In this document: piece after piece, positions 9,739 to 32,618 of the stretch | Position numbering within the stretch: position 1 is the first letter of the stretch | Layout of the letters: every line of letters starts with the position of its first letter | NCBI GenBank assembly: GCA_963775685.1 | Contig: CAVZJV010000014.1 | Span: 1-64,000 of the forward strand | Reading direction: 5' to 3' | DNA from: Candidatus Bathyarchaeota archaeon | GTDB lineage: Archaea; Thermoproteota; Bathyarchaeia; Bathyarchaeales; Bathycorpusculaceae | DNA length: 64,000 nucleotides | The notes under the pieces: model-generated | Database searches by the model: none | Told to the model about the DNA's origin: nothing | What the model saw: only the letters and a program-made list of their open reading frames with translations | Program-made: the position numbers and the translations under genes

Positions 9739-9764
9739 AACCGTGCTCGTTAGGGGTTGGTGCT

Positions 9765-9801
9765 GTTCTAATACTAGAACAAAGTGTTCTATCAGCAGAG
9801 C
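9765..9801 (+). promoter_or_regulatory. tandem palindromic operator (GTTCTA type)
   Basis: gttcta-atac-tagaac-aaagt-gttcta-tcag-cagagc-taaaa. Confidence 0.75.
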
Positions 9802-9840
9802 TAAAAACAGATAACAACTAATATGATATAGTGAACAAGC

Positions 9841-11106
9841 ATGAAAGTTCCCAAAATAGTCGTAAACCTCTCAAGCTTACCTAATGTTGAGCCCCCGAAA
9901 ATTCAGCCCACAAAGAATTGGCGATTAGGCAAAAGACTCTATATCACTCTCGCAGTCATCGTCGCAGTAATAACGGTTACAGTGGCGCTTGTAGTAACGC
10001 AGGGAAACAGCATCGGTGCACAGACAGAATGGAGCAACACCTATTACGGCGACACTGGTCGTGCAATTCAGACTTCTGATGGAGGCTACGCTATCGCTGG
10101 CTCCAATGCATCAATAATGTATCCAGCTTGGGAACGTGCCCCAATTCTTATCAAGACGGATGCCTCTGGAAAGTTGCTGTGGAACAGAACCTTTGGCACT
10201 GGGCACGTTGCAACATCAAGCATTATACAAACTCAAGACGGCGGCTTCGCTATGTCAGGAACCAATATCGGGCTACCCGTTACAAACCCAGTTTACAGCG
10301 GATGGCTAATCAAAACCGATAGCAACGGCATGGTGCAGTGGACTAAAACTTTCGGTTTACCTCTTCAAACTTGTCATGCTATCCAAACAAGCGATGGCAA
10401 TTATGTCGTTGTAGGTTATGCGACAAATGAGGCGAAGGGCGCCGACACAGTTCTCTACAAATTGAATGCCCAAGGAACCTTGGTTTGGACTAAAACTTTT
10501 GGCGGAAACTCTTCAAAATTGTTTGGCATGGGTCTGGTTGAAGCCAACAGTGGCGGTTATGTGCTTGCAGGTGCTGTGGACCGAGACGGTTGGCTCGCCA
10601 AAACTGACACCAACGGCAACTTGCAATGGAGCCAAACATACAACATCAACACCGCAACTCTTCCGTTTACCTCGATAGCCAAAACTAAAGACGGCGGCTA
10701 CATACTCTCAGGGGGCAATTTGCAAAACAGTTGGCTCTTTAAAGCCAACGCAGACGGAAAACAAGAATGGGTCAAAACATTGCCGATGAATGGATTGATT
10801 GGAACTGCCGTGCAAACCCTTGATGGCAGATATATAGCAGTAGGCACAAGTGCCCGGCAAGCGTATGTTGCTGTAACTGATGCCTCAGGTAACTTGCAGT
10901 ACAATGCTTCCTACGGTGAAGTAAATGGGAACGTAAGCAGTAACGCCCAGTCCGTTGCCTTAACGGACGACGGTTTTGTTGTGGGAGGTTCACTTAACCG
11001 TTATGCGCCAACAAGCATCGAGGGACTCAAAGTTACTCCTCCAATAGGCTGCAATGTTTGGCTGGCAAAGTTTCCATTACAACCAAATGCGGAACCAACG
11101 GGTTAG
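9841..11106 (+). CDS. membrane-anchored beta-propeller repeat protein
   Basis: N-terminal TM; QTSDGGYAIAG...LIKTDxxG..W repeats. Confidence 0.85.
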   Translation: MKVPKIVVNLSSLPNVEPPKIQPTKNWRLGKRLYITLAVIVAVITVTVALVVTQGNSIGAQTEWSNTYYGDTGRAIQTSDGGYAIAGSNASIMYPAWERAPILIKTDASGKLLWNRTFGTGHVATSSIIQTQDGGFAMSGTNIGLPVTNPVYSGWLIKTDSNGMVQWTKTFGLPLQTCHAIQTSDGNYVVVGYATNEAKGADTVLYKLNAQGTLVWTKTFGGNSSKLFGMGLVEANSGGYVLAGAVDRDGWLAKTDTNGNLQWSQTYNINTATLPFTSIAKTKDGGYILSGGNLQNSWLFKANADGKQEWVKTLPMNGLIGTAVQTLDGRYIAVGTSARQAYVAVTDASGNLQYNASYGEVNGNVSSNAQSVALTDDGFVVGGSLNRYAPTSIEGLKVTPPIGCNVWLAKFPLQPNAEPTG

Positions 11107-12556: not shown

Positions 12557-13132
12557 TTGTCTATTACTTTGGAAGAGGCTTTGGGCTTAAAGCAACCAGA
12601 AAAGCCTGTTGAAGCAGAAGCCGAGGAAGAATACTCTGAGGCGGACCTTAAGCGTATCCTACGTAGAAAGTTCGTGTTTGAACGTAGAGCTCGTGGAGAT
12701 ACGGTTGAGGAGATTGTCAGTTTTTGTCAGAAAAAAGGGTACCCTGTCACCCAACGAACAATCTTTAGGGATTTGAAAAGTGATGAAGTAGCTTCCCTTA
12801 TCGATGAGCTTGTGCGTGTGCAATTGCGGGATATTGCTTTGCTGCGTGGCTATGCTTTAGAGGATCCCAAGAATCCCAATTTGAAGGCGTTGGCTGCTGC
12901 AATTGGTGCTCGAGGCTTTATGGTCAGTTGTTTGAAGCCTAAACTTGAACCTAGTGTGAATGTGGAAGTGAATGTCGCTAACAAAACCCAACACGTGCTC
13001 CTCGCAGAATACGCCGGCGTCATATCGGAAGCTGCAACTCTTAACAGCAATCTTTCAAGAGTACGTGTTGGAGAATCCTTGGATTCCAAATCGTCCTCAT
13101 CCAGTGACGGGAAAGAGCGGTCCGACTCCTAA
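12557..13132 (+). CDS. putative terminase small subunit
   Basis: HTH (VTQRTIFRDLK); lies immediately before TerL. Confidence 0.6.
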   Translation: MSITLEEALGLKQPEKPVEAEAEEEYSEADLKRILRRKFVFERRARGDTVEEIVSFCQKKGYPVTQRTIFRDLKSDEVASLIDELVRVQLRDIALLRGYALEDPKNPNLKALAAAIGARGFMVSCLKPKLEPSVNVEVNVANKTQHVLLAEYAGVISEAATLNSNLSRVRVGESLDSKSSSSSDGKERSDS

Positions 13133-14481
13133 GCAGGCAAAGTTTCTTCTGTTGCTTGATTGTTTGGAGGCTTTGTTTGGTGGCGCCGCAGGAGGCGGAA
13201 AGTCAGATGCTTTGCTTATGGCTGCCGCGATGTTTCTGGATGTCCCAGGGTATGCCGCGATTATTCTTCGACGTAGCTTCACGGACTTGAATAAACCTGG
13301 CGCTTTAATATCGAGAAGTTTTGAGTGGTGGGGTAAGACTGCTGCTCGTTGGGATGGGATTAATCATACGTGGCATTTTCCCTCAGGTGCATCGTTGACT
13401 TTTGGGTTTTTGGAAAATGACCGGGACGTTTTTCATCATCAGAGTGCGGAGTACCAGTTTGAGGGTTGGGATGAGATCACCCAGTTTACTGAGTATTCTT
13501 ATCGTTACATGATAAGTCGTATGCGTCGGCTTAAACGGTTTGAGTGGCTTCCTCTGCGTGTTCGTGCTGCATCCAATCCGCCGCATAAGATTGGGGGTGT
13601 TGTGCAGGGGTATTGGGTTAAGGGTTATTTTTTGCCTTGGTTTGTTTGCCATCATTGCGGTTTTAAGATGCAGACTGAAGACTTAGACCTCGCAATTTGC
13701 CCTGAATGCAATAGTTCTGAGAGTCATGTTGAGTTTAATTGTGATGAGGAAAGCGGTGAGCCACGGAGTCTTTATTCCCTCAACTTTGGATGATAACATT
13801 TTCCTCGATAAGACAAGTTACATTAAAAGCCTAAATCGGCTGGATCCTATTACCCGTGAGCAGCTGCGTCGGGGTAGCTGGAAAGTCAGTTCAAGCGGGA
13901 TGCTTAAGCGAGAGTGGTTTGTTAACGGCAAAGAGCGCCTACTTATTGATGCTTCAGCTGTACCTGAGAAGGCTAGACGGGTGCGGGTTTGGGATTTGGC
14001 TTGTACTGAAGAGGGCGATGCACCTGACCCCGATTATACAAGCGCTCTAAGAGCTGCTATGGTTGAGGGGCACATGTACATTGAGGATGTAAGGCGTTTT
14101 CGTGGCAGTCCTTCAAGGATCCAGAGCGAGATGGCGGCTTGTGCAGAATTAGATGGTCAAACAATGCCTATTCACATCGAGCAGGAAAAGGGTTCAGCTG
14201 GAAAGAACTTAATTGATCTCATTAGCCGCACTACCTTGTTGGGTTACGTTGTTGTTAGTGAGTCACCGACTGGTGAGAAAGCTGTCAGGGCTACCCCGTT
14301 GGCGAATGCTGCAGAGCGTGGGCACGTGCATTTGGTTCGTGGCCAGTGGAACAGTGCTTTCCTAGATGAGGCGGAGTTTTTTCCCTCGGGCAAGCATAAG
14401 GACCAGATCGATACGGCTGCTTATGCCTACAACATTTTAGCGATGGTTAAGAAGAGACCCAAGGCGGCAAATGCATCATGA
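12972..14481 (+). CDS. terL: terminase large subunit, split by a +1 indel near 13766
   Basis: GGAAGGGKS, WDEITQF and ASNP in ORF1; VFIPSTLDDN, WDLA...DYTS and KHKDQID in ORF2. Confidence 0.92.
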
Positions 14482-14624: not shown

Positions 14625-16268
14625 TTGAGTGAGAAAAAATCTTCCTGGAAGGGTTTGTCGCATTACGCTAAAGTGCTAGTTTACGGCAGCGCAGCGAGTT
14701 CTCCCAAGATAGGCAAAGGCGACTTCGGAACCACCAATACCCCAACAGACAGCGAGAATTATGCAAGCATGGACAGGGATTACCGTTGGTTTCGCCAAGA
14801 CGAGCTTGTCCGCAGATGCACAATAATTAATGCTTGTTTTACTGCTTTGGCAGCTGGATTTGAGACTGTCCTTGAGCCATCAAAACCTATAGCGGATGAG
14901 AACGAAAAGAAAGCCCTCTTGAAGAAATATCAGTACATCAAGGATTATGTGGATGCAGTTAACAAAGCAGTAAACTTTGACCAGGTTCTATTTGTAGCCC
15001 AAATTAAACGCAGCATCTTTGGGAAATGCGGGTTTGAGATCGTGTTTAAAACCGACGGCAAAACTCCTGCATACCTCATCAGCCTTCAGAGCCCAAAGTT
15101 AACTCCCAAGAAAAACAAGGATTGGGAGCTCACCGGCTTCAAATACACCGGCATCAAAGAAGGTTACAACGTCGATGAAGTCTTATATTTTGTCAATACT
15201 CAACTCGAGAACGATTTCTTGGGTTTAAGCGATGTTGAACCCATCCGTTCAACCTGCAAAGCCCGAAATTACTTGCTCGACAAAGATTTCCCCGAGATTA
15301 CCCGTCGGCTTTGGGCACCCTATACGCTACTCGAAGCAGATACAGCCGATATGCCCGATGATGATGAAACCGCTTTTCTTAAGGATCTGGCAAAGATCGC
15401 TGAAGCGGGCAAGAGCACTGCAATTAACAAATCTGTCACAGCCCAAGTGGTTGAGTTCCGCATTAACTTAGGAGGGCTTGTGCAGTTGATGGACAAGCTT
15501 GAAGAAGGGGTTATTCGAGCGTATGGAACGCCACGTTTTCTAATTAACAAGACGCCTGAGAACAGGGCAACAGCTTATGTTGAATTTGAAGCCTATGTTG
15601 AGGGGGTTATCAAGCCTAATCAGCGTTACTTCAAGCGAGCTCTCGAATCTGAGATGTGGTATGATCGGCTAGCACGGCTTGCCATGGAAGAGAAGGGTGA
15701 GAAAATTGCTAAAGGTGTTGCTCTTCCGGTCAAGGTTAAGCAAAATTTCAAGCCAGTTAAAGCCTCTGACATCTACGCCATGGCAGTAGCAGTTGCAAGT
15801 CTCTATGGTAACGGCAGCGGCGTTCTGGCCGAGTTCCCCGAGATTGCTTTTGAGATGATGAATTGGGACCAAGAGTTGCTAAAGGCAAAAGAAAAGGCTC
15901 CACTGCCGCCCGGAAAAGCCGTGGTTGTTAAGGGGAAGATAAGAAGGGGAAATATGAGGAGTACATTATCCGTCGTCGATTGCCTGCAGCTCATCAGCAC
16001 AGTTGATGCCATAGATGTCCTTGAAGCTTTCAAGCGGATCCCCGACCAATTTAGGGGTTATGCCTTCTTTGGCTCTGATGACCGCTGGCTATACATTAAA
16101 TCTGGCAATCCGAACCTTTGCGAGAACTGTTCGGGCTACGATGGTGAAGTCTTCTACGGAGATAGCCTTTGCTCCGAGTTTCCATATCTGCGAATTATTG
16201 ATGAGAACACGATTAACCCCAATGTTCACCCACATTGTGAATGTCTTCTGATTCGGGTTCCAGCTTAA
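14625..16268 (+). CDS. portal protein with C-terminal MuF-like (head morphogenesis) segment
   Basis: Position after TerL; FGKCGFEI, GLSDVEP, AYGTPRFL..NRATA; terminal CENC...HPHCEC. Confidence 0.8.
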   Translation: MSEKKSSWKGLSHYAKVLVYGSAASSPKIGKGDFGTTNTPTDSENYASMDRDYRWFRQDELVRRCTIINACFTALAAGFETVLEPSKPIADENEKKALLKKYQYIKDYVDAVNKAVNFDQVLFVAQIKRSIFGKCGFEIVFKTDGKTPAYLISLQSPKLTPKKNKDWELTGFKYTGIKEGYNVDEVLYFVNTQLENDFLGLSDVEPIRSTCKARNYLLDKDFPEITRRLWAPYTLLEADTADMPDDDETAFLKDLAKIAEAGKSTAINKSVTAQVVEFRINLGGLVQLMDKLEEGVIRAYGTPRFLINKTPENRATAYVEFEAYVEGVIKPNQRYFKRALESEMWYDRLARLAMEEKGEKIAKGVALPVKVKQNFKPVKASDIYAMAVAVASLYGNGSGVLAEFPEIAFEMMNWDQELLKAKEKAPLPPGKAVVVKGKIRRGNMRSTLSVVDCLQLISTVDAIDVLEAFKRIPDQFRGYAFFGSDDRWLYIKSGNPNLCENCSGYDGEVFYGDSLCSEFPYLRIIDENTINPNVHPHCECLLIRVPA

Positions 16269-16298: not shown

Positions 16299-17348
16299 TT
16301 GTCTAAACAGCATAGTCATGAATTAGTCTTCATTGCTGGTTTACACCGGCTTGATGCTGCCAATAAGAAGGCAGTTTTCTACTTGATGAATACCAGCCGG
16401 AACCGTAACCGCTGGGGCGTCACGCAGAAAGCTCTCGACGAAGCTTTGCCTTCGCTGTTAAAGAAGCCCTTGGGCATGGGTAAGGATTACAAGCTGGGGC
16501 ATTTTGCAGACGATGAATGCATGAATGTTGGGTTGTTTTCGGCTTTTGAGAACAAAGGCAACTATGCATTGGGCACTGTCGATTTAACCGATGATAAAGC
16601 CTTAGCTATGCTTGAATCTGGCGAGTTGGGACCGATTAGTTCTGTCATCCTTCCCTATTATGATACTTGCAGCGCTTGTGGTGAAGTTTTGGAGACTGAC
16701 TGGGAAAATCACCCTTGCATAGCCCAGAATAGGGGTTTCTCAGAAGTGCAGTCTTTTGAGTTTCACCGCTTTGATTTTGTTGACGTTCCAGCGTATCCGC
16801 AGGCAGGCTTCATGAATTTTGCCTCCAAACGAGAGGACAAGAGCGTGCCTCTTACGCTTCTGGCAAGCGTCTACAACAATTCACGATCTCCAATTTTACA
16901 GGAGCAAAATAAAGTGTCCGAAAAACAAGAGAATGAAAAAATATCGGCACTTGAGCAGAGGGCAACCAAAGCCGAAGCTGACCTCAAAAAAGCACAAGAC
17001 GACGCATCAGCCAACGCGACTAAAGTCAATGAGCTCAGTGCAGAACTCAAAGCAATCAAAGATGAAAAACACGCTGGCCTGGTAGAGCAAGCCTACAGGG
17101 CGCGTGTGGAAGCTGGCATTGCAGACCAAGAGAAGGCAGATAGAGAGATGCTTGCTGCGTTAGATGACAAGAACTTGAAGCTTTTCTTTGTTGAGGCTGT
17201 GAAAATCGCTAAAGTTGTTTCTACTCAAGGGCATCAATCCCCCAAAAACAAGTATCAAGCGGGTGAGGAAGATGAGCTTGCAGCTGCAGTCGCAGCCAAA
17301 AGAGCAGAGCTTGGCTTACCCGAAATAAAAAAACAGGAGAAAAAATAA
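16299..17348 (+). CDS. prohead protease/scaffold protein
   Basis: NRNRW, CSACG, DFVDVPAYPQA plus coiled-coil C-terminus. Confidence 0.75.
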   Translation: MSKQHSHELVFIAGLHRLDAANKKAVFYLMNTSRNRNRWGVTQKALDEALPSLLKKPLGMGKDYKLGHFADDECMNVGLFSAFENKGNYALGTVDLTDDKALAMLESGELGPISSVILPYYDTCSACGEVLETDWENHPCIAQNRGFSEVQSFEFHRFDFVDVPAYPQAGFMNFASKREDKSVPLTLLASVYNNSRSPILQEQNKVSEKQENEKISALEQRATKAEADLKKAQDDASANATKVNELSAELKAIKDEKHAGLVEQAYRARVEAGIADQEKADREMLAALDDKNLKLFFVEAVKIAKVVSTQGHQSPKNKYQAGEEDELAAAVAAKRAELGLPEIKKQEKK

Positions 17349-17349
17349 T

Positions 17350-17808
17350 TTGACGTTAGGAGATTATGGACTCAAATCAGCTCTTCTTGTAGTTGAAAAA
17401 ATGACCATGAAGAGCAACACAGACGCGGTAAAGGGCAAACTCTACGCTGACGACGGCGCAGGCTTAGTTCTCGCAACCGCTGCCCTAGCTGCAGTGACAA
17501 AGGTTGTTATGGCAAACGAAGATCACGACTACAGCGAAGAAACAGACCACGACATCAGCGTAACCGTAGTGGGCTTGGTTGAATGCGCAAAAGTCGCAGG
17601 CTCCGGCTTAGCACGCAAAGGCGACAAAATCATGATTTCCGCAACCGCAGGAGAATGCACCAAATTCGTTGCGGGCAATGTTACTGCTACAGTCAACGAA
17701 TCTACAGTTGAAGCAGCTAACCTAGTTAACCTTGGCAAGATCGGCACAGCCTACGAAACCTCAGCCGACGCAGATACCACACAGAAAATGTGGTTAGGAG
17801 TCTTTTAG
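17350..17808 (+). CDS. capsid decoration/cement protein (putative)
   Basis: Small G/A/T-rich beta protein between protease and MCP. Confidence 0.6.
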   Translation: MTLGDYGLKSALLVVEKMTMKSNTDAVKGKLYADDGAGLVLATAALAAVTKVVMANEDHDYSEETDHDISVTVVGLVECAKVAGSGLARKGDKIMISATAGECTKFVAGNVTATVNESTVEAANLVNLGKIGTAYETSADADTTQKMWLGVF

Positions 17809-17809: not shown

Positions 17810-18763
17810 ATGTCTCATCCAATCAGGGTTTTTAAATCCGCTGTAGACGGCAAATTCTACAAAGCAAACTACACAGAACGTGGAAGAAACGCAAGCTTAA
17901 CTGCAGGCGGAATAGTTTCCCCAAGCGATGTTGAAGCAGTCGAAGCCGTAACAATCCTAGAACAAGTCTTAGGCTACGCATGGCCCAACTACAACTTGAG
18001 ATCGATCTGCCGCACTATCCAGATGGATAACCTGCAGGAACGCATCGACATCGCAACCAAATCAACAGGTCAACGCAAAGTTAAGCCAATGCAGGAAGCG
18101 GAGATCAGCAAAGACGCATTCGCACCAGTAAACTTTGACCTATGGAAAAACGTTGTGCACGTTGCAGTCGCAGATGAGGCAGGCATGAAATCAGCGCATA
18201 ACATCCTGCAGCTCCAAACTGAAGCTGCTGGCAGAGATCTAGGTCGCATGGAAAACCTCGACATCAAAGACATCGCCGAAGCCTGCACAGAAAAAACATC
18301 CAGCACCCCATACGTGGATTGGGCAGCAAAGACAAGCGGCATTAGCACAAACGACCCCTTCGACGCTATCATTCCCGCAATCGATTACATCCAAGGCAAA
18401 GGCTGGCCCGTTGACTTCATGGCACTACACCCCACGATCTACAGCAAATTCATCCGCAACACACACGTCAGAGAATTAGTTCATGCAGGCATTGCGAGTT
18501 TGGGTCCAAACGGCGGCGCCTTCACATTGCCAGGTTACCCAACCATCAAAGTTGTCACCGACTTTGCATTAACAGAAACTCCAGATGCAACTCATGGTCC
18601 ACTTGTTGGCAGTTCAGTTGCTCCAGGCTTAGTTTTCGGTGAAGGCCCAACGATGGCAGCGCAGTACAGAGACGAAGCCAAAGGCTTTGAAGGCTACATC
18701 ATCCGCAAATGGCAAGAGCCTAAAGTAGTCATACAAGATGCTCTCACAAAAATCTGCACCTAA
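17810..18763 (+). CDS. major capsid protein (HK97-like)
   Basis: Size, position, and backbone-helix/P-domain-like pattern (VADEA...AAGRDLGRMEN; MALHPTIY). Confidence 0.8.
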   Translation: MSHPIRVFKSAVDGKFYKANYTERGRNASLTAGGIVSPSDVEAVEAVTILEQVLGYAWPNYNLRSICRTIQMDNLQERIDIATKSTGQRKVKPMQEAEISKDAFAPVNFDLWKNVVHVAVADEAGMKSAHNILQLQTEAAGRDLGRMENLDIKDIAEACTEKTSSTPYVDWAAKTSGISTNDPFDAIIPAIDYIQGKGWPVDFMALHPTIYSKFIRNTHVRELVHAGIASLGPNGGAFTLPGYPTIKVVTDFALTETPDATHGPLVGSSVAPGLVFGEGPTMAAQYRDEAKGFEGYIIRKWQEPKVVIQDALTKICT

Positions 18764-18819
18764 ACAATCCTTTTGCAAACCAATAGTCATTAGGCTTTAG
18801 CATAAAAAATTTTTGAGCT

Positions 18820-20073
18820 TCATTTTTTTCTTTTCCTTGATCTTCTTAGCATTAGAATAATCACTGTCACGCAAGTAAGAATGATAATCGAAATACCTGT
18901 TATAAGTAACGGAAGGTTGAATGGTGGAGGAGAGCCAAAAGCTACTAGATATCCAGCTTCAGTTCCTACGCAGAGAATTCCGTCTGCTGCAGCAAAGGAA
19001 CTCACAAATTCGCCTATAGGGTAACGCCATATTACATATCCCGTAGAGCAGTTAAAGGCATAAAAGTCCAAGCTGTTTGAGCTTATGTAGACTACGCCGT
19101 CAACAACTGCAGGTGACGAAGCTACAGGGTACCCCGTATAGTAACTCCATATCTCGGATCCGGTGGTCGCATTGAGAGCATACATATTATCGTTTCCCGA
19201 ACCCACATAAACCACACCGTTGAAAATAGAGGGAGACGAAGTATCAAACCCACCAGTTCGATAATTCCAAATTTTGACGCCCGTTGTAGCATTTAAGGCA
19301 TAGATGTTTCCATCGTTGGAACCAAAATACACAATTCCATTTGATATGGCAGGAGAAGTTTCCGCAAAGCTTCCAGTGGTATAGTTCCAAACTTTATTGC
19401 CATTTGTAGCATTTAGAGCATAAATGTTAAAGTCAAGCGAGCAAGTGTAGATAATTCCTTCCGAAAAAGCAGGAGGTGACAAGCCTGGAATGTCGCTAGT
19501 CCATATTTGATTGCCGTTTGTGGCATTCAAAGCATAAACAACATGACCATTATTATCAAAAAGGATTCCGTTGACAACCGTTGGAGACGTACCACCATTA
19601 GCAGTATTGTTCCAAAGTGAATGACCATTTGAGGCGTCTAATGCTCCCACATAATGATTAGAGCTGAAATATACCACTCCATTGAGAACTACGGGGGTGC
19701 CTATGTTGTCAGATGAGTTATCTTGATAATCCCAGATTAATGCTCCATTGAAAGCCTTAAAAGCATAAACATCAGCCCAAGTAATTGGATTATATGCATT
19801 ATCCCCAACAAAACTGGCACCAACATAAACTACGCCGTCGACGATTGTGGGGGCGCTCCAAAAGTTCGCAAAATTTTTCGTTTGCCAAAGCACGTGTGAA
19901 GTAAGCACTGGATTACCAGTTCCCACTCCACTATGGGAAGGGTCGCCCTGAAACATTGGCCAATTTCCTGATGTTTGCTGGGCAAGCCCAAATTTAGGCA
20001 TAGTTATACTTGCACTTAAAACAACAAGTGTTAAAGCCAAAACTAATGCGAAGCTCTGGTTAAGGTTGCCCAT
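18820..20073 (-). CDS. PQQ/BamB-like beta-propeller surface protein (cargo, antisense)
   Basis: WPMFQGDPSHSG; SSPA..GVVY.GS.D..YALNATTG..IW repeats; signal peptide and C-terminal TM. Confidence 0.92.
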   Translation of the reverse strand: MGNLNQSFALVLALTLVVLSASITMPKFGLAQQTSGNWPMFQGDPSHSGVGTGNPVLTSHVLWQTKNFANFWSAPTIVDGVVYVGASFVGDNAYNPITWADVYAFKAFNGALIWDYQDNSSDNIGTPVVLNGVVYFSSNHYVGALDASNGHSLWNNTANGGTSPTVVNGILFDNNGHVVYALNATNGNQIWTSDIPGLSPPAFSEGIIYTCSLDFNIYALNATNGNKVWNYTTGSFAETSPAISNGIVYFGSNDGNIYALNATTGVKIWNYRTGGFDTSSPSIFNGVVYVGSGNDNMYALNATTGSEIWSYYTGYPVASSPAVVDGVVYISSNSLDFYAFNCSTGYVIWRYPIGEFVSSFAAADGILCVGTEAGYLVAFGSPPPFNLPLLITGISIIILTCVTVIILMLRRSRKRKK

Positions 20074-20160
20074 GTTTATGCAGTTGATTTAATCTGATAT
20101 AATGTTTCCCTAATTCAAACTCCAATTAGATTAACTTAAGCTTGAGCAAAAAGTGATATC

Positions 20161-20511
20161 ATGTCTACCCTAAGGTATGGTTCTTTGGCGAATGTTCAAG
20201 TTATGGCAGCCGTGACTGTAAATGATGGCGTGAGCTCTGCCGATACGGAGTTAACTATGTATTTGGGTAAGGCCTGCGATTTCATTAACGACTCCCTCAA
20301 GGGATTTGTGTCGGTACCGCTGGATCCTGTGCCTGCAGTTGTGGATACGATTGCAGAGTTCTACGCTTCGGGGCTCTATCTTGCCCGAAACAATCTTCCT
20401 GACGGCCAGACGCAGCATCCCAACGTGGTCTTGGCAGAAAAGAAGCTGGCTGAGTATAGGGCAAGTCTTCGCCGAGGCTACAAACTGTTTAGTAACGCTG
20501 AAGAGGAGTAA
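20161..20511 (+). CDS. head-tail adaptor
   Basis: Position; YLGKACDFINDSLKG...VPLDPVPAVV pattern. Confidence 0.7.
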   Translation: MSTLRYGSLANVQVMAAVTVNDGVSSADTELTMYLGKACDFINDSLKGFVSVPLDPVPAVVDTIAEFYASGLYLARNNLPDGQTQHPNVVLAEKKLAEYRASLRRGYKLFSNAEEE

Positions 20512-20517
20512 GGCGCC

Positions 20518-20976
20518 TTGTCTGTTCGGGTTAAAGTTGATTCCACTAGGCTTGAGAGTCTAGTCGGTGGGGTGGCTGCTCAGCAAGGGCTTGTTTTTGG
20601 TGAGTGGCAACGGCAGGGATCCGTCGAGGCTGAGCGTGTGTTGCAAGCTAATACACCTGTTCGCACGGGGTTTCTGCGTGACAGTATCGTTAAGCAGTTG
20701 ACGCCTTCAGGTTTCACAGTTTACCCCACAGCATCCTATGCATCATCAGTAGAGCATGGGACTGGTCCGCACACGATTTTTCCTTCACATGCCAAGGTTC
20801 TCTGTTTCAGAACCGGCAAGCTTGGTTGGGTGTTCGGGGAAGGCGCAATATTTGCCAGGCGAGTTAAGCATCCCGGGTTTGCTGGTCGCTTTTTCATACG
20901 CAAAAGCCGTGATGAGTTGCGTGTTAAACTGCGAGATTTGTATTTGATGCTTTGGAGTCGGATGCAAAATGAGTAA
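20518..20976 (+). CDS. HK97 gp10-like neck protein
   Basis: TPVRTGFLRDSI...YASSVEHGT...HPG..GRFF. Confidence 0.85.
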   Translation: MSVRVKVDSTRLESLVGGVAAQQGLVFGEWQRQGSVEAERVLQANTPVRTGFLRDSIVKQLTPSGFTVYPTASYASSVEHGTGPHTIFPSHAKVLCFRTGKLGWVFGEGAIFARRVKHPGFAGRFFIRKSRDELRVKLRDLYLMLWSRMQNE

Positions 20977-21394
20977 CACAATATTAGCCATTAAAGTAGC
21001 TGTTAAAAGTGTTCTTTTGGATGCTTCTTTAGGTCAGGTTTCTAAGTGGCTCTCAGCTGAGCCTTCGCCTTCTGCTTATCCTGGGCTGTGTTTTGGGTGG
21101 GTTGAGTGGAGCGGCGGGTCCGTTGTGCAGGCGAATTTTGATCGCAAAAAAGCGGTTGATGAATTCTTCATAGTCATAATTACTAAGAATGCTGATTCCG
21201 ACCAGGCGGAAAGTGACGGATTGGCGCTAGCTGAGAAGGCTGAGGCTTTGTTCTCTGCTGATCGTAAGTTGGGTGGCGCCGTAACTGATAGTTTGATAAC
21301 GTTGCGTGAGAAGCAAAAAGTGTTCGACGGAAAATTCAGCATTAATGCTGTTCGGTTAACGCTGCAAACTTGGCGCTGGATATCTACTAATTAA
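20969..21394 (+). CDS. tail terminator protein (putative)
   Basis: Position; DRKLGGAV motif. Confidence 0.65.
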   Translation: MSNTILAIKVAVKSVLLDASLGQVSKWLSAEPSPSAYPGLCFGWVEWSGGSVVQANFDRKKAVDEFFIVIITKNADSDQAESDGLALAEKAEALFSADRKLGGAVTDSLITLREKQKVFDGKFSINAVRLTLQTWRWISTN

Positions 21395-21460
21395 GCGATT
21401 AAAAATGTGTTTTTCTATTCTTTAACTCATACTCTGCAGACATAGATAAAAAGAGAGTTA

Positions 21461-21920
21461 GTCAAGAAACATTGACAAGCCTTTGGTCAAGAAATCGCAA
21501 ATTCCCTCTCCAGGACATCAGTATTTCACAGGGTCAACTGAAGTCACGAAATATGCCAGACGGAAATCATAATATCACAATAACAGCTTATGCAGGCGGC
21601 TTCTATCCTGCTGACGGCTTCAGTATAGGTGATGGATTAGGATTTTATCGCTTTCTGATTAATGGTATGTCTACAGTCTTTTTCACAGCTGGTAACCCAG
21701 CAAATGCAACTCCTTTAGCACACATATTCAAACACCTTTGCTGACGCCTTCGCACTCAATTGACAACTTGTTCTTTCAAATAGAAATTCTAATAGTCTTA
21801 GTTTCGATATTTATCATCATTACAGTCTCCATATTTGTTTTCAGAAGGCATCGAAAAACAGTTAACTTAGTCAAGAAACTTTGACCGAGCAGTTTTCTGA
21901 GTTAGTCAAGAAAGCTTGAC
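21461..21920. repeat. three GTCAAG-N4-[ACT]TTGAC palindromes (21461, 21870, 21905) plus a half site (21486)
   Basis: Directly visible; a fourth copy is at 34919. Confidence 0.8.
21472..21884 (+). pseudogene. 5'-truncated, frameshifted surface-protein gene
   Basis: Ig-like fragment (GNHNITITAYAGG), then in another frame a TM helix plus FRRHRKTVNLVKKL*. Confidence 0.65.
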
Positions 21921-21952
21921 GAAAGGCTTTTTATTCCAAACAAAATGAAAAT

Positions 21953-22591
21953 GTGAATGGCTATAATATGAAAATAATTGCCCTCGTGATGCTTGCCTTC
22001 CTTGTCTATTCCACATTTTTTGCAGCTTGCAACGGAGCAGTATGGTTTGAAGGATACAACCCGCAGGAATTCCAAGAAATCCGACTAAACATGCAATACA
22101 TTCAACAACCTCCTGAACACACGCCATCTTCTCCTCCCTTTTGTCATTTGACTCTAAATGAAACAGAACCGCATACTGTTAACCTCACAATAACCGTTTC
22201 CACGATGGCACTATTCCGCCAAACTTCAAACTTTGAAACTTGGCTATCCATCGACTCCCAAGAACCCGAAAAACTAGTTGGAGTCCTTGATTCAACCGTT
22301 TCAGCAACGGGAGCAACATACCAACGCCAATATAACGTAACCCTAAACGAGTTGGTGGATGGCACTCACTCCATAGAAATTCGGGTAGCAGGAGACTATT
22401 ACGGTCCCGATCTTGAGGGAGAGAAATACAACTGCGAAGGCAACATAACCGCTATAATTAACGACTTAACTATAACTCCGTCCCCTTCTGTTCCAGAGTT
22501 TTCTTGGTTAACAATTCTACCCTTACTACTCGCTATTCCAATTGCTCTGGTCATATTCAGAAAAACCGTTTCTAGAAACATTACCTTGTAG
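21953..22591 (+). CDS. surface protein with PEF-CTERM-like sorting tail
   Basis: Signal peptide, DGTHSIEI Ig-like strand, PSVPEF-TM-RK. Confidence 0.85.
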   Translation: MNGYNMKIIALVMLAFLVYSTFFAACNGAVWFEGYNPQEFQEIRLNMQYIQQPPEHTPSSPPFCHLTLNETEPHTVNLTITVSTMALFRQTSNFETWLSIDSQEPEKLVGVLDSTVSATGATYQRQYNVTLNELVDGTHSIEIRVAGDYYGPDLEGEKYNCEGNITAIINDLTITPSPSVPEFSWLTILPLLLAIPIALVIFRKTVSRNITL

Positions 22592-22724
22592 GATTGAAGC
22601 ACCAACAAAAAACATGATTGTCATAAGGCGGGTTTTAGCTAACACTCCTGTTAATCAATTAGTTTTGGTAACTGCCTTTTTGGCATTACAACTAAAAATT
22701 TAGAAATTTTGGAGGCAAAAAATT

Positions 22725-23117
22725 ATGTCTATTCCAGTCCCTGTTTTGGGTAGAGATGCTCGTTTAATAAAATCCAGTGTCGCCATCGGTTTTGGCAAAA
22801 GCATTAAAGTATCCGCGGATGCTGAAGAAATAAAAGTCTACAGTATGGATTCTTTGCAGCCTGCTATCACTGCTGCTGGGAAGCAGTCTTTTAAGTGGTC
22901 CTGTGATCGGCTTTTCACCGATAAAACTTATTTGGCGCTGCTGATGGCTGGCACCAAGTTTGATTTGGTGTTTGCTCCCGAGGGCGATGCTGAGGGCGAT
23001 ACGGTTGAGACTTGGAAGAACTGCAGTATTTTGCATTGTGAGCGTTCAGCCGGCGAAGATGACGGCGTTTTGGAGAGCATTAGTGGTTCTGCCGAAAATG
23101 TCGAGTTTCCAGCTTAA
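22725..23117 (+). CDS. tail tube protein
   Basis: GGAGG RBS, position before the chaperone, beta-rich. Confidence 0.7.
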   Translation: MSIPVPVLGRDARLIKSSVAIGFGKSIKVSADAEEIKVYSMDSLQPAITAAGKQSFKWSCDRLFTDKTYLALLMAGTKFDLVFAPEGDAEGDTVETWKNCSILHCERSAGEDDGVLESISGSAENVEFPA

Positions 23118-23126: not shown

Positions 23127-23600
23127 TTGATGGGTAATGAAAAGAAGTTGAGTTCTGCTGCGGCTGCTATGTTGCCTGAGAATGAGGCTAAGATTGCAGA
23201 GTTTAAGAGGCGTGCTGAAGCTGACGATGCCCGAAATGAAACAGTTACCAAGTTATTTGACCCTGTTGCGTTGCTGCAGCGAGCTGGCCAGATCCATGAA
23301 GCTCAACATCCAACTTTGGGTTTGATTCGTTATGGTGAATTGGTGATCGCTGATTCCGAGGTTATCAATAAATGCAAGAACAAAGCAGACCGCAACGCTA
23401 TGAGCATCTATTTGATGCTTAAGAAAGCCTATTCTAATCTCCCAGATTATACCCCTGAGACCATTAATGAATTTAACCATTCTTTTCCAATGTTGGAAGC
23501 ATCAGAACTAATCAAGTTCCTAAATGAGCAACCGGGTTTTTTGTTAACCAAATCGCCACCTGGATCAAGCACAGTTCAGACGCCGAAAACATCGGCTTAA
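23127..23600 (+). CDS. tail assembly chaperone (gpG-like)
   Basis: Between tube and tape measure; slippery G_GGT_TTT at 23534-23540. Confidence 0.75.
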   Translation: MMGNEKKLSSAAAAMLPENEAKIAEFKRRAEADDARNETVTKLFDPVALLQRAGQIHEAQHPTLGLIRYGELVIADSEVINKCKNKADRNAMSIYLMLKKAYSNLPDYTPETINEFNHSFPMLEASELIKFLNEQPGFLLTKSPPGSSTVQTPKTSA

Positions 23601-23710
23601 TTCTCTCTACTTTTCCCCAATTCAATTTTAGCAGCTTGCGAGAGCTCACAATCCTGCAGTATAATTACCTGGTTGCCTGGGCAAGACTGCATCAGGTTAA
23701 GGTGAGGTAG
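23540..23710 (+). CDS. -1 frame extension (gpT-like part of gpGT)
   Basis: FVNQIATW...LRELTILQYNYLVAWARLHQVKVR*, stops 1 nt before the tape measure start. Confidence 0.75.
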   Translation, partial: FVNQIATWIKHSSDAENIGLILSTFPQFNFSSLRELTILQYNYLVAWARLHQVKVR

Positions 23711-23711
23711 C

Positions 23712-25067
23712 TTGGCTGATTCTGACATAGAAATCAATCTAGAACTAATCGACAATGCTAGTAGTCAGCTAGCGGAAGCCTCATCAAACATTTCCAGCAG
23801 CCTTGATATGGTTTCAAATTCGAGTAGCCAATTAGCTTCTGCCGCTGAATCGACCGTGCCTCCATTATCTGAGAGTGAGCATGCTCAGAGGCAGTTGACT
23901 TCTGCAGCAGTGGAGCTGAAGGATACACAGTCTACGTTGGCGTCTGCCACTGAGAACCTCAACACCGCTATTCGGAAGAATGGATCCGATAGCCAAGAGG
24001 CCGCTGTGGCTCTTCGGGATTTTACAGCTGCCCAGCAAAATCTTAAGAATAGCCAAAGTGAGCTTAATTCTATTACCAAGCAGAGTTCTGGTTCTCTAAA
24101 GGGATTTGCTCTTGGTGCATCTGGAGCTGCCACTGCAGGCTTTAGTCTCTATAGTAGTTTTGATAGGATTCAGAAAGCGGAGCTTGCGGTTGACAGGGCT
24201 AATTTGCAGGTGCGCACTTCCACTAAAGGGGTTGAGGATGCCCAGCGTAACCTCAATGCAGCCGTGGTTGAGCATGGCGCTAGTAGTGTCGAAGCTAAAG
24301 CCGCGTCAGAGCAACTAAGCATTGCACAGGAGCGTTTGGAGGTATCCAATGAGCGGGCTAAGCAGTCGCAGGACAACGTCAATCAAGCAATGATCGCAAG
24401 TGCAATACAAGTTATCCCTTCCACCATCACCATGGTTGATAGTCTAAGTAGGGCTTGGAAGAATTTTCCCGACATGACAGGCGTTCTAAAGACTCTTGGT
24501 ACCAATGTTTCTGATGTTGGCAGCAAGGCGTCGCTTGCGGCTATTGGGGTTGGTTCTTTTGTCGGCGGCTTCACTTTGGGGGTTACTGTGATTAAGCAGT
24601 TTGGTGACCAGCTGGGTCCTGTTGGCAGGGCTTTGATGGTTGTTGTTCCAGCTATTATTGCGGCTGCCGCTGCGGTTTGGATGCTCCAGGAAGGCATAAC
24701 CTTGGGAGTTGCCACCGCTGCTTTGGTTGCTTCTGGTGTTGCTGTGGGCGCTATGGTTGCGAACCTGCAGAGTTATGGCAATGTCGCTGGTTTAGCCGCA
24801 GGTGGCGTGGTTGATCACCCGATGCTGGCGTTGATCGGTGAAGGCGGCGAAAAAGAAATCGTTATGCCCCTTAGCCAATACGAGGCCCAACGCACAGAAA
24901 GCAAAGAAACAAAGCAGGCTGCAGCTGGCTATCCACAGAACGTGACTTACATCACCTTTGAGCAGCACCTTCACGGCGATATTGTCAGCCCTGCCGATGA
25001 AGACAGAGTAGCCCAAAAAGCAATTGACAAACTTGATGAGGAACTGTATCGCAGGAGAAACAGTTAA
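23712..25067 (+). CDS. tail tape measure protein (short, 451 aa)
   Basis: IEINLELIDNAS start, coiled coils, TM region, GLAAGGVV...LIGEGGEKEIVMPL. Confidence 0.88.
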   Translation: MADSDIEINLELIDNASSQLAEASSNISSSLDMVSNSSSQLASAAESTVPPLSESEHAQRQLTSAAVELKDTQSTLASATENLNTAIRKNGSDSQEAAVALRDFTAAQQNLKNSQSELNSITKQSSGSLKGFALGASGAATAGFSLYSSFDRIQKAELAVDRANLQVRTSTKGVEDAQRNLNAAVVEHGASSVEAKAASEQLSIAQERLEVSNERAKQSQDNVNQAMIASAIQVIPSTITMVDSLSRAWKNFPDMTGVLKTLGTNVSDVGSKASLAAIGVGSFVGGFTLGVTVIKQFGDQLGPVGRALMVVVPAIIAAAAAVWMLQEGITLGVATAALVASGVAVGAMVANLQSYGNVAGLAAGGVVDHPMLALIGEGGEKEIVMPLSQYEAQRTESKETKQAAAGYPQNVTYITFEQHLHGDIVSPADEDRVAQKAIDKLDEELYRRRNS

Positions 25068-25423
25068 TGGCATTCATCATTGGAACAGTAACGCTTCCCG
25101 AAGTGCCTGAGCGTATGAGTGTTCAGAAATCAGCCAACAAGCAAACAGAGCCCAAATCAGGCGATTATCCGCTTGCAATGGTAGACGGCTTTTCTGGATC
25201 CATAACTTTATCGGGAAAGCTTGAGGGCAGCTGGCTAACTAATTTTGAGGCAATCCTGTCACCCCTACTAAATGCGGTTGGCACAGCTGTTTCATGCACA
25301 TTAGGCGGCGGACTTGACGGCACATATCTGCTTGATGACTTCAAGTTTGATCCCGAAAACCCCTCAGTAACACCCTACACAATCAAGTTGACTTCAGCTA
25401 GCACAGTTTACGCATTGAGTTGA
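25067..25423 (+). CDS. distal tail protein (putative)
   Basis: Position after the tape measure gene. Confidence 0.6.
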   Translation: MAFIIGTVTLPEVPERMSVQKSANKQTEPKSGDYPLAMVDGFSGSITLSGKLEGSWLTNFEAILSPLLNAVGTAVSCTLGGGLDGTYLLDDFKFDPENPSVTPYTIKLTSASTVYALS

Positions 25424-25427
25424 GATT

Positions 25428-28226
25428 ATGGCAAGATGGTCAATTGAATACTACGATGATGTTGCACAAGACTTCGTTGAATTCACAGGGTACAATCTTA
25501 ATCAGGTTTATGAGGAACTGGGCGAGAACGGCGAGCCACATCTATATTTTCATGTGTTCAATACGGCTGCCAACCGTGCACTTTTGCAGCAAGACCTTCT
25601 GGTTAATGCGTATTATAATGACGTGCTGCAGTTCACGGGGATTCTGCAGGGCGGAGATATAGAAGATCGCCCTGGCAAAATCAAAATGGTTGTCTACGAC
25701 GATTTTATCATAACGCTTGATCAGGCCTCATCATTCACAGGCGCGTATGAAAAATCAGCCAAAGACATAATCGACGCAATCCTTGATGGCACTGGCTATA
25801 GTGCGCACTCAAGTACACCGACAACTATTATCCCTGTTGTTTTCTACCATGCGAACCGACTTGATGCGATTAAATTCATGCAGAAGGCGCTTGCATGTGA
25901 CGTTTGGCACAGTGGAACAACAGTCTATTTCGGCGCCAAAGGTGCAGAAGTAACCCACAATCCAACAACTATAGCACTCAGCAAACGTGGCATAGACCGA
26001 TCCAAAGGGCAATTTACAAAAGTTGAGATCAGAGGCACTGACGTAACTGGATTTCACATTTTAGGAGTTGCCGGCTCGGGCACAAAGGTCTGGAAGGGCA
26101 ACGAAGACCAGATGACCGATGAAACAACCCTCAACAGTATAGCAGCTAAGAAACTTGCAGAGTTAGCCACTGATTCAAGCGGTTTGCCTGTTAGTGTTCT
26201 GATGACAGAGGGCAAAGACTACTCGCTTGGCGAATCAGTCGCAGTATCAGATGCGCGTTACCTGCTTGATGGAACATACCGAATCATGCAGATGACTAAA
26301 ACAAAATTCAAATGCAATATGCAGCTTGATAGGGCGCGTAAAACGCTTGCTGCGACAGTTGATGAACTGAAAGGTTGGGAGAAAAAAGGCATCTATGCGC
26401 CTGGAAGTGAAGCATGGGAAGTTAACCTTCAGGGGCTAGTTGGGCTTTTCCACCTAAATGAAGGCGAAGGCACAATCGCGAAGAATGCAGCGCCCCTTGA
26501 AGAACCAATCGATGGAGTAATTAATGATGGAAGTTGGGAAGATGGACCTATCACAAAAATGCTTACATTTAATGGAACAAGCTCTATGGTTAGTCTTGGC
26601 GATGCCAGTCAAGCAGGAATCAACTTTACGGGTAAGCTGAGTTTTGGCGGCTGGTTTTCTCCTTCAGCAACTGATTCAACCAAACGTTTTGTCTGCCATA
26701 AAGACGGTCAATTCGCATTGTATTATCATGTTAACACAGGCGTTCTTGGCTGCGATATAGTCACTGACACTGGTACGCATAGTTATAGTTCTGATGCTGG
26801 TTTGATCAAGGTCGGTGGCCGCATTTTTGTTATGGTTACTTATGATCAAGTTAAAGTGCGCATGTACTATAATGGTTGGCTGCATAAAGAATGGTCATTG
26901 ACGGGTGCGCCGTTATCTTCAGAGAACCCTGTTTATCTTGGTGTTTTCTTGAAGGGTGTTCTATCAGAAGTTATGCTCTGGTCACGGGCTCTGGTTGATC
27001 AGGAGGTGCTTGAGCTCTACTTTTTTCCCCTGCTTAGGTCTATGAGTAAAATTAAGCCAGATGGCTTTTATCTGACGTATGGTCCCAGCGTTAAAGAGCG
27101 TAAGGCTGTTACGCTTGATTACATGCTGAGTTCTTTAATCCTTAATGGTGAAGCAGTTGTTTCTTCGGCTACTGGAACGATGAACAGCTACGAAGCAGGG
27201 TATGCAGTTTTGGCACTTCTGGATTTTGGCGGATCATCGTATTATGGTCTTTGTGAGGATATTTTGGATTTGTGGGTTTCTCTGCAGAACGTTGATGGCA
27301 GCTGGTACCAACAGTACAATCCATATTCGCCCTATGACGTTGTTGCTTTGACCTCTTTGGGCACTGATGGCGATTTGAAGGTTGATTCTGGTGCTGCTCT
27401 TCTTGCTTGGGCAATGAGTCGCTATGATGAGTTAACAAGTAGTACAAGATACAGAGTTATAGTTCAGAAAGCGTTAAGCTTTTTGCGGGACCTTCAATAC
27501 TCTCACCTGGTTGCTCACTCAACTAACTTGCTCTCAAACCTTATTTTAGATGGAGTAACAGACACGACTGCATTGCTTGCTGATTGTGGTGAATGCTTGC
27601 TTTCAGCTAAACATGCCTTAGATGCGTATGGCGACAGTCTGCTGACGTCGGCAAGTTATAGCGTGAAAACCTTCGCAAACGACCTCTACTATAGTATATG
27701 TGTGGTTGGGTGGCGAGGCAGCTTAGCTCTCTATTTTGATACTTCTTATCCCTATGAACAAAACACGAGCATCCCATTCAACTATAAGGAGAAAATTAGC
27801 TATACTCAGGCTCTTTGCAGCTGGGCAGTCTTCGAGTTTGCTGGCAGTGCATATTTAACTGCGTCTGATTACCGATCAGGAATCTGTGAACCTTGCCTTG
27901 ATTATATTGTTACTGTTACTAGGGGGTCTTGGGGCGGAGAGTATTTTTGCCCTTATACCGGGGGAACTGGGGAATCGCAGGATGAATTTGCAGGTTATTC
28001 TGGCCTATTGTGTATTGCTGCGCAAAAGGTGAACAACACAAAATATACCCATCTCATAACGGGCTTGAGAGGCTTCATTAGGTGGCTCACGTTGCCCGAC
28101 GGCCAGATATGTGATGTTGCTGATGCAACGGGAAAATTGTGGCGCAGCAAATTAGATGAGACCACAGAAGGCGGGTTCTTAGTTTTGCCAATCGCTATTG
28201 CTTTGTTGGCTGGCGCTGGAAGTTAA
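25428..28226 (+). CDS. tail-tip/hub protein with LamG domain and C-terminal alpha/alpha-toroid domain
   Basis: Hub-like N-terminus; GLVGLFHLNEGEGT...LWSRAL...E (LamG); QNVDGSWYQQY helical repeats. Confidence 0.8.
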   Translation: MARWSIEYYDDVAQDFVEFTGYNLNQVYEELGENGEPHLYFHVFNTAANRALLQQDLLVNAYYNDVLQFTGILQGGDIEDRPGKIKMVVYDDFIITLDQASSFTGAYEKSAKDIIDAILDGTGYSAHSSTPTTIIPVVFYHANRLDAIKFMQKALACDVWHSGTTVYFGAKGAEVTHNPTTIALSKRGIDRSKGQFTKVEIRGTDVTGFHILGVAGSGTKVWKGNEDQMTDETTLNSIAAKKLAELATDSSGLPVSVLMTEGKDYSLGESVAVSDARYLLDGTYRIMQMTKTKFKCNMQLDRARKTLAATVDELKGWEKKGIYAPGSEAWEVNLQGLVGLFHLNEGEGTIAKNAAPLEEPIDGVINDGSWEDGPITKMLTFNGTSSMVSLGDASQAGINFTGKLSFGGWFSPSATDSTKRFVCHKDGQFALYYHVNTGVLGCDIVTDTGTHSYSSDAGLIKVGGRIFVMVTYDQVKVRMYYNGWLHKEWSLTGAPLSSENPVYLGVFLKGVLSEVMLWSRALVDQEVLELYFFPLLRSMSKIKPDGFYLTYGPSVKERKAVTLDYMLSSLILNGEAVVSSATGTMNSYEAGYAVLALLDFGGSSYYGLCEDILDLWVSLQNVDGSWYQQYNPYSPYDVVALTSLGTDGDLKVDSGAALLAWAMSRYDELTSSTRYRVIVQKALSFLRDLQYSHLVAHSTNLLSNLILDGVTDTTALLADCGECLLSAKHALDAYGDSLLTSASYSVKTFANDLYYSICVVGWRGSLALYFDTSYPYEQNTSIPFNYKEKISYTQALCSWAVFEFAGSAYLTASDYRSGICEPCLDYIVTVTRGSWGGEYFCPYTGGTGESQDEFAGYSGLLCIAAQKVNNTKYTHLITGLRGFIRWLTLPDGQICDVADATGKLWRSKLDETTEGGFLVLPIAIALLAGAGS

Positions 28227-30640: not shown

Positions 30641-30908
30641 TCATGTTAACGGGGATTGCTTTAGCTGGGTTAAAGGGCGGCAAGGTAGGCCAGGACCAGT
30701 TTCGGTCGCGGTTATGCTTGGAATTTTTAATGGTGCCAAAGCATGCTGAGAATTAGCTAATGTTGCATTAGAGTTTGAGAACTGGATTAGGTCAAGCCCT
30801 AATGGCGTATTGGATTGTATTGATTGTGCGAGGACCGTTACAGTAAAGGCAGTGATAAATAAAATTACAAGCAAACTAGTTGCTATTATTTTCTTTATCT
30901 TTTTTCAC
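30641..30908 (-). pseudogene. N-terminal fragment of a secreted-protein gene
   Basis: Signal peptide KIIATSLLVILFITAFTVTVLAQ; extra A near 30903; truncated. Confidence 0.5.
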
Positions 30909-31248
30909 CTCTATACTCAAATCTCAATCGGCAAAATTACCGCTAAACTAAACTGTGATAAGCAATTTGAGTTTTTTCAAGTTATTTACTCCTTTGCAGT
31001 TTTATCATGAACCATAGGTTAACTGTTAATAGTCCCCAAAATAACCAAAAAGGTGTGTTCAAATACCAAAAAATACCTTGAACAGCCGAAAGGCTACCGT
31101 TGAAGTATGCATAATGTTGAGCACTAATTCCTATTGGACCCAATGACTAGTTATTAGAATTGTATTAGTGCCATTCATCGCATTCCAAATTGTGGCGTTA
31201 GAGTAAATAAAAAGCAAACTTAGGATAATATTTGTAACGATTAAATAT

Positions 31249-32154: not shown

Positions 32155-32179
32155 TACACTGATGTGGGGCGGTACTTAA

Positions 32180-32216: not shown

Positions 32217-32241
32217 ATGCTTTACTAGAGGAAGTCATTAT

Positions 32242-32574: not shown

Positions 32575-32618
32575 GAAAACACGCAGTCGGTTATTTAATG
32601 CTATATTTTATTGAAGGT

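Follow-up and report, generated by a model that had tools for sequence, protein, structure and literature searches.

Surface-gene inserts at virion gene boundaries of a Bathyarchaeia-associated provirus, probably morons of a circulating head-tail virus

The window analyzed here is a stretch of 64,000 nucleotides from a Candidatus Bathyarchaeota archaeon (assembly GCA_963775685.1, contig CAVZJV010000014.1, positions 1 to 64,000), and it contains a 38.5-kb head-tail provirus that is integrated at tRNA-Pro and belongs to a Bathyarchaeia-associated family. The element measures 38,531 bp, of which the virion core takes up about 24 kb, and genes for surface proteins stand between the genes of that core. 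Comparison with close relatives shows that six late-operon boundaries are polymorphic among seven viruses that are about 90% identical, and we consider that the inserts found there are probably morons carried by a temperate head-tail virus that circulates actively in a Bathyarchaeia lineage, a reading that the evidence below favors over domestication or misassembly.

The relatives come from one scan of species-representative genomes with the capsid alignment, which returned 47 loci, mostly in Bathyarchaeia bins. Six of these (L001 to L006) are close, with capsids 96–97% identical and about 90% nucleotide identity to the window element, and all six carry empty or alternative alleles at the positions in question; one of them, L005, lies in a bin labeled Alphaproteobacteria, and its guanine-plus-cytosine content (GC) climbs to 55–62% after about 16.5 kb. 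Morons are defined, with gene 15 of HK97 and cor of HK022 in lambdoid phages, in PMC3594210, and two of their marks are found here: the inserts lie between genes that are adjacent in relatives, L005 being empty at both slots that are filled in the window and L001 at the second of them, and their base composition differs, modestly, from that of the virion genes around them (GC of 0.34–0.44 versus 0.43–0.50). An earlier sequence-only reading of this DNA had proposed the moron-like capture of whole expression units and had advised alignment with related proviruses; that alignment shows both inserts to be real and variable, and the empty or alternative alleles, the lower GC of the cargo, and its own upstream element support the proposal. 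The two filled slots, between the major capsid protein (MCP) and the adaptor and between the tail terminator and the tail tube, hold the following features:

18764..20174, strand not assigned: MCP–adaptor insert of 1,411 bp, standing where the empty allele has a 60-bp spacer and the beginning of the adaptor
18820..20073, minus strand: PQQ-type beta-propeller with signal peptide and C-terminal membrane anchor (Pfam PQQ_2; hydrophobicity), closest homologue 91% identical
21380..22667, plus strand: terminator–tube insert of 1,288 bp, with 8 bp of the empty allele lost
21461..21476, plus strand: palindromic promoter element, copy 1, the 5' half of its gene deleted
21490..21885, plus strand: pseudogene, a signal-Ig-anchor gene reduced to its 3' half and spread over three frames (similarity to P0242)
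21870..21920, plus strand: tandem palindromic element immediately 5' of a BRE/TATA-like sequence (BRE, B recognition element)
21968..22591, plus strand: surface protein with a PEF-CTERM-like anchor, in which ectodomain and anchor assort independently among homologues

The MCP–adaptor slot carries the antisense propeller gene that had been reported between these two virion genes, and its coordinates hold. The product is 417 aa long, matches Pfam PQQ_2 at E 2e-41, and has hydrophobic segments at both its N- and C-terminus; its score for the PQQ-dependent dehydrogenases is 85 versus 480 bits (TIGR03075), and on its sequence we assign it to the PQQ-type propeller repeat only. The gene has no palindrome, and a TATA-like box and a T-tract can be made out by eye. 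The slot is empty in L005, the sole close empty allele, and the distant loci L008 and L043 are likewise without a gene there, while four other types of cargo occupy it in L001, L002/L003, L004, and L006. L003 also retains about 60 bp of the window-type adaptor start.

The terminator–tube slot is empty in L001 and L005. Its filled form had been described as a truncated gene followed by a PEF-CTERM-like gene; an insert is indeed present, and its content can now be refined, the truncated gene being the frameshifted 3' half of a signal-Ig-anchor gene (about 21490–21885, 73% identity over 62 aa to the intact 225-aa P0242, anchor matches at 21732–21869) and the PEF gene probably starting at the ATG at 21968. 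Upstream of the pseudogene lies the apparent 3' end of a third gene. The PEF-like tail shows the motif-helix-basic layout, yet at 12.4 bits (and 21.1 bits for the L006 cargo) it falls below the TIGR03024 cut-off of 23, and we use the label PEF-CTERM-like only. A PEF tail is present in just 2 of 47 ectodomain homologues, while the tail of the window gene recurs at 85–91% identity on other proteins; for the PEF protein, no Atlas lead reached 0.8. At this slot the outer junctions of the window are identical to those of L004, and the two inserts share their last 199 bp (86% identity, including the PEF-like anchor) but have unlike interiors. The slots act as landing pads that are refilled from within, because outer ends are shared while interiors differ, tails and ectodomains reassort, and a pseudogene and a gene-end remnant are left behind.

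Four further late-operon boundaries are empty in the window and filled elsewhere: after the terminase (L006), portal–MuF (L005 and L006), MuF–protease (L004 and L006), and chaperone–tape measure (L005). The cargo includes PQQ, Kelch, and beta-helix proteins as well as membrane-anchored winged helix-turn-helix (wHTH) regulators. A crude hydrophobicity scan marks hydrophobic segments in 15 of 19 slot genes, whose products look membrane-anchored or secreted, and in all 14 genes in the two large cargo blocks of the window, versus 3 of 14 virion genes. Those blocks are:

7740..11106, plus strand: cargo block A, four membrane/secreted genes including a membrane-anchored wHTH, in a variable slot 5' of the packaging genes
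30641..38546, both strands: cargo block D, ten membrane/secreted open reading frames (ORFs)

The position of block A holds different genes in L001, L002, L003, and L005, and a 72% relative of the 551-aa gene of block D adjoins the distant provirus L007. Altogether 12,688 of the 38,531 bp are cargo coding DNA, or about 14 kb counting spacers, the figure given earlier. Stable core content, which would have spoken against capture, is not what the relatives show, the cargo being absent or different in them. Within recognized virion spans, membrane cargo is found in 4 of the 6 close loci (7 genes in 53 kb) versus none of the 40 distant ones (about 147 kb, with many of the spans short).

The junctions of 13 inserts (647–1,966 bp) at the six boundaries were mapped against empty alleles, and all 13 lie at gene boundaries. 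Six duplicate the flank (by about +5, +8, +50, +60, +74, and +82 bp) and seven lose 8–60 bp; the four inserts at the three boundaries with overlapping genes or ribosome sites are all of the duplicating kind, and both genes stay intact. Where the left junction cuts off a gene's last codons, a stop follows within 3–8 codons in six of six cases (chance about 0.375 each), two of which share an origin. A 29-bp loss read at the terminase slot against the window gave way, on realignment to the closer L001 allele, to an 8-bp duplication. Ends shared between inserts of different slots (65 pairs per end) were in excess only through the promoter palindrome, apart from one remnant pair, and scores for terminal inverted or direct repeats were near shuffled levels. 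A six-frame scan for anchor remnants gave 22 matches in the seven close sequences versus 1–9 in shuffles, many of them spurious, and only individually inspected matches were used.

The palindrome occurs in 6 exact copies in 189,592 bp, where 0.3 would be expected, and in none in 489,956 bp of distant loci; its position weight matrix was built from 11 of the sites that it finds, and the exact-copy count is independent of it. It is present in 7 of the 13 inserts, mostly about 30–75 nt 5' of cargo starts and not at insert ends, and it abuts a BRE/TATA-like sequence. Its two arms enclose a 6-bp asymmetric spacer, and in tandem arrays it overlaps the stop codon of the upstream gene; the peptide that it would encode ends 2 of 71 homologues. 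We read it as a putative operator captured along with the gene. A sigma-70 promoter scan stayed at chance level and addresses the wrong promoter type.

The virus itself appears to be active rather than domesticated. In all 23 virion gene pairs the ratio of nonsynonymous to synonymous substitution (dN/dS) is 0.03–0.25 at dS of 0.19–0.66, which indicates purifying selection; the nearest neighbor changes gene by gene, with two terminase types and two tail modules assorting on the same head; and the integration sites differ, being tRNA-Pro in the window and tRNA-His in L006, with two copies on one contig in L002/L003. Purifying selection, module swapping, and non-orthologous sites lead us to an active virus pool, and these gene comparisons would describe a recombining temperate virus population; the domestication of the window provirus that the sequence-only reading had offered as an alternative, like a gene transfer agent, would imply a single orthologous locus with constant synteny and vertical inheritance, and it fits poorly with different sites, two copies on one contig, and mosaic modules. 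The two large terminases (L001/L003/L005/L006 versus window/L002) do not align with each other, and neither do the two tail modules, seen between the L002 and L003 tails; the head that carries them is 90% identical. The set expected of Caudoviricetes of the long, non-contractile tail type is complete in the element (terminase, portal, HK97-type capsid, adaptor, tube, tape measure, integrase, and attachment (att) repeat), with no sheath detected in it:

2966..2988, plus strand: att direct repeat at the distal provirus end, a 22/23-nt match to 41474–41496 (tRNA-Pro 3' end)
12972..14481, plus strand: large terminase, split by a 1-bp frameshift near 13767 (PHROG 979; whole, 502 aa, in L002)
14625..16268, plus strand: portal joined with a MuF-like ORF by a 1-bp frameshift, with no insert at portal–MuF or MuF–protease
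16299..17808, plus strand: putative prohead protease/scaffold and decoration gene, labeled from position only, kept in most related loci
17810..18763, plus strand: MCP, with 157 homologues, many with PF25209/PF05065
20161..20511, plus strand: head-tail adaptor (HK97 gp6-like) by structure-model comparison, its initial codons varying allele by allele
20518..21394, plus strand: Neck1 and tail terminator, the terminator's final codons coming from the insert
22725..23117, plus strand: tail tube (Atlas 0.97 to viral clusters including PF18906, 14% of members)
23127..28226, plus strand: tail chaperone, tape measure, and distal tail genes (PHROG tape-measure matches; other labels from position), the chaperone–tape-measure slot empty
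40500..41423, plus strand: tyrosine integrase (Pfam Phage_integrase E 5e-21)
41474..41552, minus strand: tRNA-Pro(GGG), the integration site

The strength of these labels varies. The portal profile match is weak (E 0.009), as is the MuF label (TIGR01641 E 0.2); the region 16299–17808 matched no Pfam or PHROG family; the top PDB match of the adaptor model is HK97 gp6, at a Foldseek probability of 0.99 and a TM score of 0.56, with an E of only 0.13; and Neck1 (20518–20976) matches PHROGs at E 1e-14 while the terminator (20969–21394) does so weakly, at E 0.002. Some of the 157 MCP homologues are named Bathyarchaeota, and a tblastn search of the capsid against 50,697 phage records gave zero matches. 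The Rfam search returned nothing apart from the tRNA. An unannotated ORF of about 45 codons (14478–14615) stands between terminase and portal and is kept in L001; in L006 the insertion re-supplies its start. ParB-like, ABC-ATPase, and GNAT genes (5695–7345) lie 5' of block A, the latter two also in L004 and L008. A 317-aa ORF without a family match (4642–5595), whose single-sequence fold stayed at a pLDDT of 42, could be the replication protein; the element showed neither a helicase nor a primase nor Orc1. A degenerate third copy of the att sequence at 2461–2483 suggests an earlier tandem integration. Beyond the tRNA-Pro, a second, Zn-ribbon tyrosine integrase (41633–42940) faces its 5' end in the same layout as in L006 at tRNA-His, and a toxin-antitoxin pair and two large PQQ/Ig genes follow within 43–64 kb, so that what passes for the host side of the window may be another decayed element.

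In the mechanism that we propose, the starting point is what the alignments display, namely late-operon gene boundaries that serve as polymorphic slots, empty or with a 0.65–2 kb piece in which about 100 bp of upstream DNA accompany one or two genes. A piece would first enter by two independent imprecise joins, through end-joining or a replication template switch, at no dedicated site, and the survivors would be those products that preserve both virion genes; because only such products would survive, overlapping genes would be opened by duplicating the overlap, and at ordinary spacers small losses would be borne, a stop, ribosome site, or start being formed anew. Candidates for end-joining functions, a PolX-like polymerase and a stand-alone ATP-dependent ligase (54621–55205 and 58716–59579), are encoded near the provirus, and no match to the Ku family was found among the ORFs scanned. 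Filled slots would then spread through homologous recombination in the conserved virion genes, and their interiors would turn over by way of what is conserved within the surface-gene families, namely the anchor-coding tails and the promoter elements, leaving gene-end remnants, a step for which the shared and reassorted alleles provide part of the record. By analogy with HK97 gp15 and Cor, the cargo may be expressed in the lysogen from its own promoter and alter the cell surface (entry exclusion, adhesion, or substrate binding), and it may also help to fill a capsid that a core of about 24 kb would leave underfilled.

Several explanations compete with the moron reading. That a dedicated site-specific cassette system, integron-like or built on a tyrosine recombinase acting at the palindrome, moves promoter-gene units into the virus is quite improbable in our judgment: the two-armed palindrome with its asymmetric spacer and its overlap with upstream stop codons would suit such a system, one deletion end falls in a palindrome copy, two integrases flank the tRNA, and archaeal integrons are described in the parts of PMC9668308 covered, yet the insert ends lie about 20–80 bp from the palindrome at a varying distance, the palindrome is fixed in place relative to the TATA-like box, as an operator would be, and is missing from 6 of 13 inserts, and the junctions span −60 to +82 bp. 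Pairs of attC-like cores, by a crude pattern, occur in only 3 of the 13 inserts, with no repeated downstream site, and neither integrase comes near the integron-integrase cut-off of 265 bits (scores of 74.8 and 32.6). The unrecognized mechanism envisaged earlier, taken as a dedicated element, likewise finds no footing, as the 13 inserts lack common ends, inverted repeats, and a target duplication of fixed length, which sets them apart from insertion sequences and transposons; no transposase family matched among the element's ORFs scanned, in line with what had been stated. Misassembly or a chimeric contig has next to no probability: some related contigs do carry many frameshifts, and the GC shift and bin label of L005 would fit a chimera, but the independent assembly L004 has its terminator–tube junctions at the positions found in the window, and six other assemblies make use of the same slots.

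It is also unlikely, as we see it, that surface genes are insertion-prone genome-wide and that proviruses are a neutral landing ground, decaying or domesticated as a surface-gene reservoir. The frameshifted terminase and portal of the window would agree with this, as would L004 and L006, which are without some virion genes and have their cargo intact (in L006 a PQQ pair beside an integrase remnant), the up to 46 PQQ genes reported for Bathy-6 genomes in the parts of PMC11697101 covered, and the head-only modules at one host locus in other Bathyarchaeia. Neutral landing would be expected to hit ORF interiors too, and here every one of the 13 inserts sits at a boundary, with overlaps rebuilt; purifying selection, mosaicism, and differing integration sites argue the same way. 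We similarly doubt that the cargo is mainly stuffer DNA for headful packaging length, its surface function being incidental. A core of only about 24 of 38.5 kb, a cargo gene decayed in place, and a known Bathyarchaeia provirus of 46.8 kb (PMC11697101, in the parts covered) speak for it, and against it stand the predominance of membrane or secreted products among the slot genes, the wholeness of most of them together with an upstream element, and a dN/dS of about 0.30 in the cargo common to L002 and L003.

Some observations weigh against the moron reading and have to be set beside it. Relative to L002 and L003 the window copy carries two frameshifts, +1 in the large terminase near 13767 and −1 in the portal near 15934, the latter fusing the downstream MuF-like ORF. 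The earlier statement that the flanking structural ORFs are undamaged stands for the four next to the inserts, but not all structural genes of the element read cleanly; sequencing error and decay are both possible causes of the frameshifts and cannot be told apart. One window cargo gene is a pseudogene, which means that maintenance does not extend to all of the cargo. Virion genes are missing from L004 and L006, where cargo has been kept; in L006 it includes a pair of large PQQ genes, with a truncated adaptor on one side and, at tRNA-His, an integrase remnant on the other. Individual copies thus decay, and their cargo stays. A donor locus for the cargo was not seen, and its source may be a mobile pool. 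The six MCP–adaptor alleles all return to the adaptor at a near-identical codon, with differing, natural-looking N-termini; because of that common point of rejoining, the alleles would seem to be old and exchanged through conserved flanks rather than each a fresh capture. Finally, PADLOC on 22 proteins gave only HTH-type matches for the slot cargo and no other defense model.

The distant loci show other arrangements. They carry other inserts 3' of the capsid gene, such as a methyltransferase in L024. In L035 a 381-aa gene in this position (11306–12451), similar to one in L034 (14793–15938), has weak matches to part of Cas9 models, and its product is probably an HNH nuclease. Four loci (L019, L020, L021, and L026) hold a head-only module of portal, protease, decoration, capsid, and adaptor-like genes and an ORF of 90–108 aa, and L025 lacks the portal and protease; no terminase or tail is seen in these loci, and the same host-like genes, including a DNA ligase, follow in five genomes. 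The module is a candidate for a real domestication of the capsid genes in another Bathyarchaeia lineage.

Like lambdoid morons (PMC3594210), the inserts are putative independent transcription units between conserved morphogenesis genes, with differing GC and often envelope proteins with cellular homologues, and HK97 gene 15 sits between tail chaperone and tape measure, the very boundary that is filled in L005; up to 12 morons are known in Burkholderia phages (PMC3594210), and a high count alone is therefore already known. They differ from lambdoid morons in their archaeal host, in the six polymorphic boundaries in seven viruses of about 90% identity, in the opening of overlapping genes by duplication, and in a cargo mostly of single-pass surface proteins from lineage-expanded families. 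Among systems of related hosts, and as far as the portions of each source covered extend, PMC11697101 describes a provirus of 46,769 bp with interspersed foreign genes in a closed Bathy-6 genome, notes lineage PQQ expansions, and attributes the PQQ and surface-gene expansions of Bathyarchaeia to lateral transfer and within-genome duplication; compared by description only, that provirus comes with no slot polymorphism, junctions, or surface-gene cargo in the passages concerned. The 'Kunpengviridae' and BATPV1/2 (PMC10848311, PMC11705971) are likewise temperate Caudoviricetes of the same host class with an integrase and accessory genes; 'PQQ' has no occurrence in either main text, and the PolB, MCM, and baseplate described for the Kunpengvirus were not detected in the window element, which sets it apart by description. 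The Opia viruses of Atabeyarchaeia, as the covered portion of PMC11529989 presents them, are closely related archaeal tailed viruses of about 40 kb with variable gene content, differing in a single hypervariable block of cysteine-rich nuclease-like genes versus many slots in the virion operon here. The archaeal integron arrays in the covered part of PMC9668308 also consist of tandem single-gene units near tyrosine recombinases, whereas the window family has no attC series and no IntI but mixed orientation, putative own promoters, and variable junctions. Literature searches, within open-access texts, turned up no description of surface-gene slots in Bathyarchaeia viruses; the supplement of PMC11697101, which may bear on novelty, lies outside that coverage.

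Add-on genes of this sort are familiar from bacterial phages, and the inserts are an archaeal example of unusual density; what is new is the slot density, the surface-gene bias, and the readable junctions. The first entry of a moron into a virion operon is usually invisible, since empty and filled alleles are too diverged; here, alleles of about 90% identity expose 13 junction pairs and make both the capture step and the selective filter testable. Morons are thereby extended, at high density, to an uncultured archaeal virus group, and a test should come before such cargo genes are counted as metabolic auxiliary genes. A concrete route is also offered for the PQQ and surface-gene expansions of Bathyarchaeia. 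More speculatively, and we hold this to be possible while leaning against it, the virus family might be an engine of the surface-gene expansions of its host lineage, through high-rate capture that opens even overlapping genes by duplication and fills many slots with surface genes carrying promoters, ectodomain swaps in place at anchor tails and palindromes, and cargo left in the chromosome once integration at tRNAs is followed by the loss of virion genes; if that were true, cell-surface repertoires would be shuffled and amplified through the virus pool.

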